A stretch of DNA of 8,155 nucleotides from a virus (taxonomy: Duplodnaviria; Heunggongvirae; Uroviricota; Caudoviricetes), in IMG/VR virus record IMGVR_UViG_2534681649_000004. One strand, given 5' to 3'. Positions 1,457 to 5,832 of this stretch are shown one piece after another. The translations under genes and the position numbers were made by a program. The notes beneath the pieces are model-generated. The model was not told the DNA's origin and did not search any database. It saw only the letters and a list, made by a program, of their open reading frames with translations. Each line of letters opens with the position of its first letter. Within the stretch, counting starts at the first letter, position 1.

Positions 1457-2046
1457 TGGATTCGTTACAGGATGATTATACAAAGCTGCTGTACGGACTG
1501 ATGCAGCCGGGGCCTGCATGGTCAGATACCGACGGTGTACTTGACGGTCTGGCACCATCGCTTGTGCGTGTTCACCAGCGGGCTGATGAACTGGTGATTG
1601 AAATCGATCCCGGTCAGTCCACAGAGCTGATTGAACGTTATGAAGAATTGTATGGTTTACCTGATTCCTGTTCCCCTGTCGGAACCCAGACATTACGCCA
1701 GCGTCAGCAACGTCTTGAAGCAAAAGCCAATGTGGCTGGTGGCATAAATGAGCAGTTCTTCCTGGATCAGCTTGAGGCGCTGGGATATACCGGCGTAACG
1801 ATCGAACAGTTCCAGCACCTGGATGCAAGCCCCGATCCGGAATGGGGAGATCGCTGGCGTTATTTCTGGCGTGTGACGTTGCCGGTGGATGCCGGTGCTC
1901 AGTGGCAGACATGCACGGACGCCTGCAACACACCGATCCGGACGTGGGGGGATACGGTTGCGGAGTGCGTGATTAATAAATTATGTCCGTCACACACCGT
2001 CGTTTTATTTTCCTATCCAGATGAGGATGAAGATGCACAGGATTGA
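1456..2046 (+). CDS. Phage tail/baseplate protein, YmfQ/Mu gp48-like (DUF2313-type)
   Basis: 196-aa ORF. Position between a baseplate J-like gene and the tail fibre gene matches Mu (47-48-S-U) and e14 (ymfP-ymfQ-stf-tfa) order. Family assignment from memory; start overlaps the upstream stop. Confidence 0.75.
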   Translation: MDSLQDDYTKLLYGLMQPGPAWSDTDGVLDGLAPSLVRVHQRADELVIEIDPGQSTELIERYEELYGLPDSCSPVGTQTLRQRQQRLEAKANVAGGINEQFFLDQLEALGYTGVTIEQFQHLDASPDPEWGDRWRYFWRVTLPVDAGAQWQTCTDACNTPIRTWGDTVAECVINKLCPSHTVVLFSYPDEDEDAQD

Positions 2047-3240
2047 TACGCTGACTGCGGTAAAAGATAAGTTTGGTCCGGGTAAGAACGGATTTACTGA
2101 CGGAAATCTTCGCACAGGACGTCTTGCTACCTGGCTGAACAGTGCCATGTGGAATGCCATTCAGGAGGAAATCTGTGGTGTCATTGAGAAGGCCGGGATA
2201 GAACTGAATAAAGAAGAACACGACCAGCTATATAAGGCTATATTATTGCTGGTGGGCGGTGCAATTAACGAAGAGGCATTGCTGATAAAAAATAACCTTT
2301 CGGATGTGGAAGACAGGGATGAGGCTGTTGAAAACCTCGGATTAAAACCCACGGTGGATAAGGCAAAAAATGCCGTTCAGCGTGATGGCGACACCATGAC
2401 CGGAGAGCTGAAAATCCGTGGTGTTAATGCGCTGAGGATTTTCAACGAAGCTTTTGGCCTGATTTTTCGTCGTTCGGAAGAGTGCCTGCACCTTATTCCC
2501 ACCAGTGAAGGTCAGGGGGAAAATGGCGATATTGGTCCCCTGCGCCCGTTCACCATTAATCTGCGGACGGGTGAAATATCCATGTCGCATAAAGTGTCTG
2601 TTGGCGGTGGTTCGCAGGTCAATGGTGCGCTGGGTATCGGCGTTCAGAACGCCCTGGGGGGAATTCAATTGCTTTCGGGGATAACGATACAGGTATAAAA
2701 CAAAACGGCGACGGCATTCTGGATGTTTATGCGAATGGACAGCATGTATTTCGTTTCCAGAATGGTGTGGCGATAGCGTTAAAAAATATTCAGGCCGGAA
2801 ATGCTAAAAAATTCACGTTATCCAGCGCCAACAACTCCACGAAAAATGCAGCGTTTTATTTGTGGGGTAATCCATCCAGGCCTGTTGTTGCAGAGCTTGG
2901 TGATGATTCCGGCTGGCATTTCTACAGCCAGAGAAATACCGATGGTAGTATCACATTCGCTGTAAACGGACAGGTAATTCCGTTAAATTACGGAAACTTC
3001 GATGCCCGCTATAAACATCGAACTGAGGGGGTACAGGATGTGCGGTATGGTTATGAAATGTATTACAACCCTGGCAGCAACACCGTTTCATGGACGTTTC
3101 GCTCACCTTCGGGACACGGGTTGTCAGGGATATCGATATCGGATACCGGCCGTAACTCAGCGGATAACGTCAACGGTGTGTATTACCGACCGCTGCAAAA
3201 ACTGATTAATGGCATCTGGTATAACGTAGCGAGTATTTAA
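2033..3240 (+). pseudogene. Tail fibre gene (Mu S / e14 Stf type) split by a 1-nt frame offset in a G6 tract; N-terminal segment 2033..2698, C-terminal segment from about 2662 to 3240
   Basis: N-terminal frame (MHRIDTLTAVKDKF...VQNALGG, likely start ATG 2033 after GAGGA at 2023..2027; the track's 2021 start is in the same frame) stops at 2696..2698. The other frame is open from 2593 and encodes NSIAFGDNDTGIKQNGDGILDVYANGQHVFRFQNGVAIALKNIQAGN...RPLQKLINGIWYNVASI, the conserved C-terminal block of lambda Stf/T4 gp37-type fibres. The two join seamlessly at the G run 2656..2661 if one more nucleotide is present. Confidence 0.75.
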
Positions 3241-3242
3241 CA

Positions 3243-3788
3243 ATGTTGCATTTAAAAAATATTACGGCAGGTAATCCGAAAACCGCGGAACAATATCAGC
3301 TGACAAAACAGTATGATGTCACCTGGCTTTTTTCGGAAGACGGCAAAAACTGGTATGAAGAACAGAAGAACTTTGCCAGTGACACCATAAAAATGGTTTA
3401 CACCGGAGACGGGCGCGTGGTGTGGGTCGGTAAGGATGTGACAGGCATTGAACCCCGTAACGCCAGTGTTATTGAAGTTCCTGATATTACCGCCAACCGC
3501 CGCATTACCGCGCCGGGTTACTGGTTTTACCGCAATGATGAATTTGTCTTTGACTACAGACTCAAAGCGGAAGATGAGCGTGATGCCCTTCTGGCTCAGG
3601 TCAGTGCCCGGACAGGGGAATGGGAAGAAGACCTGCTGCTGGGGCTAATCAGCGACGAAGACCGGGAAAAACTGAAAGCGTACCGTATTTACGCGAAATC
3701 GCTGCAGGCGATGGATTTCAGCGCCATCACTGATAAATCCTCATACAACGCCATTGAATGGCCCGTCTCTCCGGAAGGTTCTTCCTGA
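3243..3788 (+). CDS. Tail fibre assembly protein (Tfa / Mu U / P2 G family chaperone)
   Basis: 181-aa ORF starting MLHLKNITAGNPKTAEQYQLTKQYDVTWLFSEDGKNWYEEQKNF, the characteristic Tfa N-terminus. Starts 2 nt after the fibre gene stop. Confidence 0.85.
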   Translation: MLHLKNITAGNPKTAEQYQLTKQYDVTWLFSEDGKNWYEEQKNFASDTIKMVYTGDGRVVWVGKDVTGIEPRNASVIEVPDITANRRITAPGYWFYRNDEFVFDYRLKAEDERDALLAQVSARTGEWEEDLLLGLISDEDREKLKAYRIYAKSLQAMDFSAITDKSSYNAIEWPVSPEGSS

Positions 3789-3811: not shown

Positions 3812-5080
3812 ATGTCTGTAGTGATATCAGGTGCGCTGACTGATGGCGCAGGCATCCCCATGTCCGGATGCCAGATTATTCTGAAATCCCGTGTAAACAC
3901 CTCAGAAGTGGTGATGCGTACCAGGGCTGATGTAGTGACCGGAAATAACGGTGAATATTCGTTTGAGGCACAGGTCGGAAAATATTGCGTGTATCTGAAA
4001 CGGGACTGGCGCGACGAGTACTGTGTTGGCGACATTGCTGTATACGACGACTCAAAGCCCGGCACGCTGAATGACTTTCTGACTGCCCCCGATGAAGGCG
4101 ACCTGAAGCCGGATGTCGTCAAACGCTTTGAGGAAATGGTGGCGCAGGCGCAGCAGAGCGCCGGGGCCGCAGCCGGAAACGCACAGCAGACGGCGCAGGA
4201 TGTGGCGGCAGCCGCAGGTTATGCCCGCGCAGCAGAACAGGCCAAAAATGACATTGATGCTGCGCTGACCGGCACTCTGAAAATGGCTAACCATCTGTCA
4301 GAAATCGCAGCAGCAGGCGAAAAGGCACAACAGAAGTCCCGGGATAATCTGGGGCTGAAAAGTGCGGCCACGATGGAAGCACAGAGCGACATTTACGACC
4401 GGACAAAAGGCCGTCTGGCGATACCCGGCGCATTCGGCTTTGGGTGTGCTTTTCTGCCTGAAGATGTTATCCGTTTTGACACTAAGAGTGATTTCCTGGC
4501 CTGGGTAAGGAATGCGCTGCCAGGTGAATATTCCGTTGCTGGCCCCTACGACATCATCATACCCGACACACGGTTTGAAGGGGTGCTCAGCATCCGGTGG
4601 ACTGATGCACGCCCTGAGACAACAGAACCGCGGTACAGAGCCAAATCCCTTACTTTTTACGGCATTAACGGCCCCATTTATCACACCCGCTACTGCTACT
4701 GGCCCATATCCAGACTGACTGGCTGGGTGAAAATAAATATAACCACAGAAGATATTATTTACAGAATCGTGGCGAGCTCTGTCCGCAACAGATGGGGAGA
4801 CCCTGACATTGGCGGGCTGATTATTGCTGCGTACCAGGGAGAAGCTGACGGTGATAAAGTCATCAGACTTGTCAGGGGGCAGTCATACAGAGGCTCACGA
4901 CTGGGACCGGTGGGGATTTCAGTGCCCAGTACTCCCACCGGAACGTATATAGCATCCCCACAATTTTTCATTACGGGATGTTCAGAGCATTCATTACCGG
5001 GGTCATATTGCGCCCTGTCCGGGGGGCCGGATGCACATGTCTCTGGCGCAATGCCCGGGCTTTTTATTCGCACATCGTGA
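3812..5080 (+). CDS. Second tail fibre protein: lambdoid side-tail-fibre-type N-terminal domain, Ala/Gln-rich linker, and a C-terminal domain I cannot place
   Basis: 422-aa ORF. N-terminus MSVVISGALTDGAGIPMSGCQIILKSRVNTSEVVMRT...VYDDSKPGTLNDFL resembles the prophage tail fibre N-terminal domain of StfR/lambda Stf (from memory), followed by AQAQQSAGAAAGNAQQTAQDVAAAAGYARAAEQAK and an NLGLK motif. The C-terminal roughly 230 aa are Cys- and aromatic-rich with no family I recognise. Confidence 0.75.
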   Translation: MSVVISGALTDGAGIPMSGCQIILKSRVNTSEVVMRTRADVVTGNNGEYSFEAQVGKYCVYLKRDWRDEYCVGDIAVYDDSKPGTLNDFLTAPDEGDLKPDVVKRFEEMVAQAQQSAGAAAGNAQQTAQDVAAAAGYARAAEQAKNDIDAALTGTLKMANHLSEIAAAGEKAQQKSRDNLGLKSAATMEAQSDIYDRTKGRLAIPGAFGFGCAFLPEDVIRFDTKSDFLAWVRNALPGEYSVAGPYDIIIPDTRFEGVLSIRWTDARPETTEPRYRAKSLTFYGINGPIYHTRYCYWPISRLTGWVKINITTEDIIYRIVASSVRNRWGDPDIGGLIIAAYQGEADGDKVIRLVRGQSYRGSRLGPVGISVPSTPTGTYIASPQFFITGCSEHSLPGSYCALSGGPDAHVSGAMPGLFIRTS

Positions 5081-5083
5081 GGA

Positions 5084-5653
5084 ATGCACCGTGGAAATTA
5101 AAAAATCATTAATCCCCGTTATACCGAAAGTGGCGCAGTAGACTGTGACGTTTTTTTTGACGACAGGGACCAGGCAGTCCCCTACACAGCCACCGCTGAT
5201 GATGTCGCTCCGACGGGTCAGCAAATCTGGCAGGAACTGCAAAGCGGCAAATGGGGTGAGATAGCCCCATTCACTGTGACACCAGAAATGCTGGAAGCGG
5301 CCAGAGAGGCCAGACGTCAGGAAATTGAAGCATGGCGCGCAGAACAGGAGGCGAAGCCGTTCACGTTTGAATGGAACGGTCGTATCTGGAATGCTGGTCC
5401 CGACTCACTGGGCCGCCTGTCCCCGGTAGTCATGCTGGCAAAATCTGTCACAGCACAAACACATATGGCGTGGAGCGATGCCGATAATCAGCAGGTGAAA
5501 CTGTCGATGCCGGAACTGGAAGAACTGGCGGCAGCAATGGTGCAGGCGCAGGTCGATCGCAACGATGAGATTTATCGCCGTCAGCGTGAAATGAAAGAGG
5601 AGCTGAGCGGTCTGGATGATTTGGCTTCAATTCGGGCGTTTGACGTTGAGTAA
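5084..5653 (+). pseudogene. Tail fibre assembly/chaperone-like gene (DUF4376-like C-terminus) with an in-frame TAA at codon 6; alternatively a shorter CDS from GTG 5276
   Basis: ATG 5084 follows GAGG (5079..5082) overlapping the upstream stop, reads MHRGN then TAA (5099..5101). The same frame then runs open for 184 codons to 5653 with no ATG/GTG/TTG before GTG 5276. C-terminal sequence (FEWNGRIWNAGPDSLGRLSPVVMLAKSV...KLSMPELEELAAAMVQAQVDRNDEIYRRQ) resembles phage tail-fibre chaperone domains, from memory. Confidence 0.5.
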
Positions 5654-5769
5654 TGAATAAGCCGCAACTGGCGGAATCACAGAAGACCGCTTTGCTTACC
5701 GAAGCGGAGTCTGTCATCCGGCCGCGGGGGCGTGCTGTCAGGCTGAACAGGGAAACGGATGAATCCGGG

Positions 5770-5796
5770 GAGGCCCGGGGGCGGGCCTCTGTTTTT
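5770..5796 (+). terminator. Rho-independent terminator between the convergent tail-fibre operon and ipaH
   Basis: GAGGCCCG (5770..5777), loop GGGG, CGGGCCTC (5782..5789), then TGTTTTT. An 8-bp GC-rich perfect stem with a T tract on the plus strand; the reverse strand has the same hairpin preceded by A's, so it may act partly in both directions. Confidence 0.55.
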
Positions 5797-5832
5797 CCGG
5801 AGTCAGTCCGGTCTGTGGTTTATGCGATGTGA

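Follow-up and report, generated by a model that had tools for sequence, protein, structure and literature searches.

What is the second tail-fibre gene at the end of a decayed prophage, and does its distal part make up a new kind of domain? This question is raised by a stretch of 8,155 nucleotides (nt) of Caudoviricetes DNA (IMG/VR record IMGVR_UViG_2534681649_000004), referred to here at its full length as the window. It encodes a fibre protein of 422 amino acids (aa), followed by a gene of the DUF4376 family and by ipaH, the gene of a type III secretion system (T3SS) effector. We conclude that the gene pair is of a known kind, an accessory tail fibre and its DUF4376 chaperone, with a tip family that is structurally unsolved and sparsely annotated. 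Probably the pair belonged to a phiP27-like prophage, as accessory fibre and cognate chaperone, and survives as a relic linked to ipaH.

Anchor, shaft and distal tip of the second fibre

A first-pass annotation, made from the sequence alone, had seen a second fibre gene directly behind a Mu/e14-type fibre and its chaperone. This is indeed its place: the open reading frame (ORF) at 3812-5080 follows the Caudo_TAP gene at 3243-3788. The fibre and its partner are divided as follows.

3812-5080, plus strand: second fibre gene, phiP27 L56-type, intact 422-aa ORF (ORF list, PF08400, PHROG 2636)
3812-4204, plus strand: N-terminal anchor, aa 1-131, lambda Stf-type, predicted collar or neck-binding domain (PF08400)
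4205-4450, plus strand: Ala/Gln-rich shaft and conserved hinge (…NHLSEIAA…SRDNLGLKSAA…QSDIYDRT; three-way protein alignment, blastn)
4451-4735, plus strand: predicted tip subdomain A, aa ~214-308, one helix and four strands (AlphaFold model)
4736-5077, plus strand: predicted tip subdomain B, aa ~309-422, one helix and six strands (AlphaFold model, conserved columns)
5091-5653, plus strand: putative DUF4376 chaperone gene, phiP27 L57-type, frameshifted pseudogene (PF14301, PHROGs, frame comparison)
5100-5105, plus strand: A6 homopolymer, frameshift site in the DUF4376 gene

The N-terminus had been assigned to the lambdoid side-tail-fibre type, and sequence searches of Pfam and the PDB bear this out. 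PF08400, 'prophage tail fibre N-terminal', covers residues 1-131 (E 5.8e-63; 211.3 bits, cutoff 26.6), and PDB chain 9e7m_Ta, 'Tail fiber protein', aligns with residues 1-92 (E 4.8e-17). That chain comes from the tail tip complex of Ur-lambda (PDB 9E7M). In Ur-lambda (9E7M/9MGH) twelve Stf N-termini, homologous to the anchor, make a collar at the gpV/gpM junction (PMC12617516). The collar spike of the Vibrio myophage XM1 (7KJK) matches the N-terminal ~190 aa of the fibre (E 2.7e-6); the distal parts are unrelated. In XM1 the N-terminal domain of gp40, homologous to the anchor, binds the neck, and such an anchor can thus attach trimers to the neck of a phage with a contractile tail (PMC10457771). 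The window's anchor shares 90% identity over aa 1-100 with L56 of the Stx2e phage phiP27 (AJ298298).

Lambda Stf uses a Tfa of the Caudo_TAP family as its partner. The tip of lambda Stf is gp37-like and binds OmpC (PMC12617516). The window fibre, unlike lambda Stf, has no gp37-like region (e.g. PF03406 repeats) and its partner is a DUF4376 protein: the gene downstream is PF14301, and PF02413 is represented behind the fibre only by a 59-aa relic that scores below the cutoff.

The distal part starts at RLAIPGAFGFGCAF (RLAIPG), residue 201, and is 222 aa long. It had been described as some 230 aa that match nothing recognisable. For curated domain families and solved structures this description is right. 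By sequence, the distal 222 aa have no match in Pfam, NCBIfam or the PDB; there is no Pfam match beyond residue 131, the full fibre compared with all PDB chains gave N-terminal matches only, and a tip profile built from 13 sequences found nothing credible among the same chains. In NCBIfam, neither the fibre nor the DUF4376 protein nor the 59-aa ORF has a family. Beyond these resources the description fails. PHROG 2636, 'tail fiber protein', is matched with an E-value of 2.4e-206, residues 133-421 corresponding to profile positions 272-567 of 568, with a shaft shorter than in the profile. Moreover, tblastn detects tip homologues with 28-33% identity in annotated fibres of the phages Av-05, 19-1-2, Rac-SA53, phiP27, SerU-LTIIb and Goslar. 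The distal part had also been said to lack the GDNDTG… block, and sequence comparison agrees: GDNDTG and DVYAN are absent from the distal 222 aa, and the block sits in the first fibre gene, fibre 1, at 2677-2738.

A word-indexed search returned 183 tip homologues, whose listed source names are all Escherichia, Shigella or Salmonella, and in which the tip module stands behind either a PF08400 or a P2-type PF12571 anchor. An exhaustive phmmer search of 1.84 billion representatives yielded only 90 clusters with the module, nearly always C-terminal, in proteins of 200-1300 aa; no Pfam family covers it in these homologues either.

The AlphaFold model of the tip (m65263d9bb0dc, built on 65 diverse sequences) has a predicted local distance difference test score of 90.1 and a predicted template modelling score of 0.69. 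It consists of two alpha/beta subdomains, of which subdomain B ends in the conserved motif LPGxYxALSG…GLFxR. A half corresponding to tip positions 1-~120 is found separately inside long fibres (P0137, P0176, P0184, P0187), and the other half (~124-224) alone at the C-termini of other fibres (P0177, P0180). In two homologues (P0088 and P0114; alignment A1, columns ~400-560) a long insertion lies between the subdomains, which are therefore separable units. This insertion includes a stretch like the conserved fibre segment '…SPSFSGTPTTPTP…EALDTLNELA…'. Aligned with each other by hhalign, the two subdomains give no sign of an internal duplication (probability 1.4%).

Foldseek places the two C-terminal domains of phage K gp144 (5M9F) closest to the model, with an E-value of 0.019 and a probability of 0.82, and finds nothing at E 0.001 or better. 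Phage K gp144, the phi812 receptor-binding protein (9EUF) and the knobs of R2 pyocin (6CU2/6CL6) are the best structural matches, and the likeness lies in small alpha/beta domains that follow each other at the far end of a receptor-binding protein. We read the predicted tip as a divergent member of this general class of small distal domains, neither a new kind of domain nor a close relative of any solved tip. Hence the proposal that the distal part is unplaced and the window's best candidate for an uncharacterised domain is not sustained, with PHROG 2636 covering residues 133-421 and a predicted fold that resembles known receptor-binding distal domains; the fallback offered beside it, a divergent known fold, is the one that holds. 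In our estimate it is improbable that the C-terminal ~222 aa are no conventional receptor-binding tip but something novel in fold or function, for instance a depolymerase enzyme or a non-phage domain, the empty domain and PDB searches being set against the annotated phage-fibre homologues and the resemblance to known tips.

The DUF4376 gene and the two-fibre order

The annotated 'own chaperone-like gene' of the second fibre proved half correct. A gene of the DUF4376 family does lie downstream, and the listed 125-aa ORF at 5276-5653 is not a gene. The true start is a GTG at 5091, 10 nt past the fibre stop codon, preceded by a ribosome-binding site, GAGGAA, at 5079-5084. From there the gene aligns over its full ~187 aa with phiP27 L57 (75% identity) and with its orthologue in an enteroinvasive Escherichia coli (EIEC). 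The run at 5100-5105 counts six A in the window versus seven in 9/9 other loci with this sequence. For this reason the reading frame opened by the GTG ends after 16 codons, and the 125-aa ORF is merely the tail of the gene, its C-terminal two thirds. This remnant matches PF14301 (E 3.6e-17, 63.2 bits against a cutoff of 25) and only the C-terminal part of the PHROG 7703 and 1141 profiles. The protein repaired to A7 has no PDB relative by sequence. We also weighed programmed frameshifting at the A-run and dismissed it, because the other copies all have A7 and a single continuous frame.

The partnership of tip and DUF4376 gene is nearly fixed. We collected 90 related loci in all. Where there is room downstream, a DUF4376 homologue follows the tip in 58/58 close and 19/20 distant loci, and in typical uninterrupted loci it begins 6-25 nt past the tip match. 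Among loci with tips of only 34-48% identity, the DUF4376 protein keeps 65-75%; its N-terminal part, too, is conserved across very different tips. Owing to this conservation beside divergent tips, the DUF4376 protein may recognise the conserved extreme C-terminus (LPGxYxALSG…GLFxR) and not the variable tip surface. DUF4376 proteins are listed as tail-fibre chaperones of the Alteromonas phages V22 and A5 (PMC10579305), and in Campylobacter CJIE1 a DUF4376-domain gene downstream of the H-fibre is needed for fibre function (PMC7882524). V22 gp27, A5 gp9 and the CJIE1 gene resemble the window's gene in carrying PF14301 in the C-terminal half and in lying directly downstream of the fibre; the window's copy differs in being frameshifted.

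The order of the genes is that of a known phage. In phiP27 the L54 fibre, the L55 assembly protein, the Stf-type fibre L56, the DUF4376 gene L57, L58 and attR succeed each other, and L56/L57 occupy the same position as the pair in the window, after a Mu-type baseplate, a first fibre and a Caudo_TAP gene. There are differences as well. The L56 tip is only ~29% identical to the window tip, L56 has 490 aa versus 422 aa with a shaft 68 aa longer, phiP27 has no ipaH, and L58 is unrelated to the 59-aa ORF of the window. An EIEC prophage that is near-complete, from the tape-measure gene through the baseplate, shows the same two-fibre order with ipaH at the end. The region had been explained as a mosaic of two tail-fibre lineages; the tandem order is not local, and this explanation falls, since phiP27 and the near-intact EIEC prophage have it too. 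The EIEC genome with the most intact prophage, that of strain FDAARGOS_944 (NZ_CP065613, prophage at 616-637 kb; L001, 11132-12773), is the reverse of the window: it has kept its tail genes, fibre 1 and the DUF4376 gene whole, and its ipaH is annotated as frameshifted.

The preceding Mu/e14-type fibre reported by the first-pass annotation is present, but as a pseudogene. Fibre 1 is frameshifted at the G-run 2655-2660, which has six G in the window versus seven in EIEC strain FDAARGOS_944, where the gene is intact. In Shigella-type loci with both parts called, it is split into gene calls of 221 aa and 173 aa.

Recombination, linkage to ipaH and the state of the cassette

From about aa 100 onwards the fibre is identical to a 471-aa allele, except for a 49-aa deletion in the shaft; the anchor of that allele is only 48% identical. 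In its lambdoid setting the 471-aa allele comes behind gpJ and Lom, where lambda has stf, and a DUF4376 gene and ipaH lie downstream of it. Against lambdoid loci, blastn gives a DNA identity of at least 99% from 4207/4211 to 6780 or 7860 versus 83% just to the left. By this comparison the fibre gene arose through natural recombination, and its breakpoint, estimated from the alignments, lies near 4207-4216 in the shaft region. The shared block of ~3.65 kb (4207-7860) comprises fibre codons 133-422, the DUF4376 gene, a tail-fibre assembly gene relic (the 59-aa ORF), and ipaH with its upstream region; we compared it between the Mu-type remnant and the gpJ-Lom-Stf lambdoid prophages L012, L018, L022 and L033. 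In L012 and L022 the identity ends at 6780, within ipaH, which has a different leucine-rich repeat (LRR) part there.

Tips at least 85% identical to that of the window have ipaH downstream in 43/47 loci with room for it, as compared to 2/14 loci with more distant tips. Since the block is near-identical in lambdoid and Mu-type prophages and the linkage is so unequal, the distal fibre, the chaperone and ipaH would travel as one block, which indicates that recombination within the fibre gene probably moved tip, chaperone and effector together. In keeping with this, effector genes are known to lie past the tail-fibre genes of prophages (PMC3530523). A T3SS effector just beyond the fibre genes at the prophage end is likewise found in E. 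coli Sakai and Gifsy prophages and in Shigella ipaH islands (the latter named in PMC4226921). The window differs from other effector cargo loci in that effector, fibre distal half and chaperone form a near-identical block in two phage morphotypes.

The cassette no longer operates. The tail genes upstream have disappeared, frameshifts have broken both fibre 1 and the DUF4376 gene, and the full fibre ORF is kept in only 33/66 close copies and lost in the other 33/66. The ratio of nonsynonymous to synonymous substitution rates (dN/dS) among close tip alleles ranges from 0.2 to 4.4, without clear purifying selection, in an underpowered test on few (1-17) and non-independent differences. In the window the cassette is a non-operating relic of a decayed phiP27-type prophage bearing ipaH.

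The locus can then be assembled into a single picture. The region would form the distal part of the tail module in a phiP27-like prophage, one that has a Mu-type baseplate and, naturally, two fibres. By analogy with its homologues, the Stf-type beta-sandwich anchor would dock the fibre trimer as a collar on the tail or neck ring, and the short Ala/Gln-rich shaft with its conserved hinge would join the anchor to the tip. The two-domain alpha/beta tip (~210 aa) is the putative receptor-binding module, a role suggested by where it lies, by its exchange as a module and by the resemblance of its fold. Near-invariant synteny and the experiments on DUF4376 proteins of other phages suggest that the DUF4376 protein would be the cognate folding and trimerisation chaperone of the fibre. 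An insertion sequence (IS) element has cut off everything upstream of the baseplate gp48 gene, and the fibre ORF would persist intact, as a relic, because of its physical linkage to ipaH.

Alternatively, the host could have co-opted the fibre ORF, as an adhesin, as part of a tailocin or to help mobilise ipaH. In favour of co-option, the fibre has an intact ORF here, identical on 23 contigs, next to phage genes that are broken, and its linkage to ipaH is tight. Identity across genomes is accounted for by recent common descent, however, half of the close copies lack the full ORF, and no baseplate, sheath or tube genes are left upstream in the lineage of the window. With the cognate chaperone broken as well, and with the dN/dS values given above, we hold co-option to be very unlikely. 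As to an assembly chimera or artefact, a composite protein with an anchor like phiP27 L56 and a shaft and tip identical to a lambdoid prophage fibre might look like one. Yet the same protein with the same flanks recurs on 23 independently assembled contigs, of which 15 exceed 1 Mb, and a complete EIEC genome has a copy with 99% identity; the mosaicism is a product of natural recombination, and this explanation has practically no probability.

Flanking elements and implications

The closest matches to the window are chromosomes of ipaH-bearing E. coli and contigs with proteins that NCBI names Shigella. The remaining features are these.

60-1281 (ORFs 60-1216), minus strand: IS3-family element (HTH_Tnp_1 and rve; orfA 914-1216, orfB 60-878)
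1232-1456: baseplate-J gene remnant, 74 aa, adjoining the IS3-family element (ORF list)
1456-2046: gp48/YmfQ gene, end of the Mu-type tail module
2021-3240, plus strand: fibre 1 gene, Mu/phiP27 L54-type, frameshifted, two ORFs
3243-3788, plus strand: Caudo_TAP assembly protein of fibre 1, intact (PF02413, E 1.3e-25)
5653-5832, plus strand: 59-aa ORF, relic of a decayed tail-fibre assembly gene (PF02413 below cutoff, PHROG 7784, sequence comparison)
5833-7476, minus strand: ipaH, LRR and NEL E3 ubiquitin ligase T3SS effector, intact, 547 aa

Of the baseplate-J gene the IS3-family element, presumably IS600, has left only the last ~74 codons, and it takes the place of all sequence upstream; the counterpart of this remnant in related loci carries PF26079. 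At the other end, ipaH (PF14496, the NEL domain, E 6e-77; NF046045 IpaH_Shig, 563.9 bits against a cutoff of 550) is convergent with the fibre cassette and lies 0 nt beyond the 59-aa relic. Tandem repeats of ~60 nt at 6990-7230 on the minus strand, within ipaH, correspond to duplicated LRR units (LPELPxSLEYINVSDNHL…), and allele lengths among related loci vary between 547, 587, 603 and 608 aa.

The 59-aa ORF matches PF02413 profile positions 66-98 only, the middle fragment of a Caudo_TAP gene. A second PF02413 fragment (89 aa, C-terminal part) is found beyond ipaH and a methyltransferase gene in related loci (L003, 10707-10976). The two fragments look as if cargo had been inserted into, or had recombined within, a tail-fibre assembly gene. 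From 7860 the window matches an IS1-bearing segment of locus L005; we take the start of this segment to be an IS1 terminal repeat. The gene of the class I S-adenosylmethionine-dependent methyltransferase, which normally adjoins ipaH, is mostly missing here as compared to L003 and L005 (9982-10963). A deletion mediated by IS1 could account for this loss near 7860-8155.

Annotations should list the 125-aa ORF as part of a frameshifted gene and mark fibre 1 as a pseudogene. The tip family, which stands outside the curated domain databases, gains a domain-level description and a confident model; its importance is modest. The link between this family and DUF4376 chaperones could aid the engineering of phage host range in Escherichia and Shigella. 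A block of fibre distal half, chaperone and ipaH in two phage types moreover gives a testable picture of how ipaH spreads among prophages. It is possible, though we hold it only tentatively, that this tip founds a receptor-binding family restricted to Enterobacteriaceae and structurally unsolved, whose two alpha/beta subdomains are separable and which neither Pfam nor, by sequence, the PDB represents. The constant pairing of the tip with a conserved DUF4376 chaperone, and its joint transfer with ipaH between prophages of the lambdoid and the Mu type, would then make tail-fibre recombination the route by which ipaH has multiplied in Shigella genomes.
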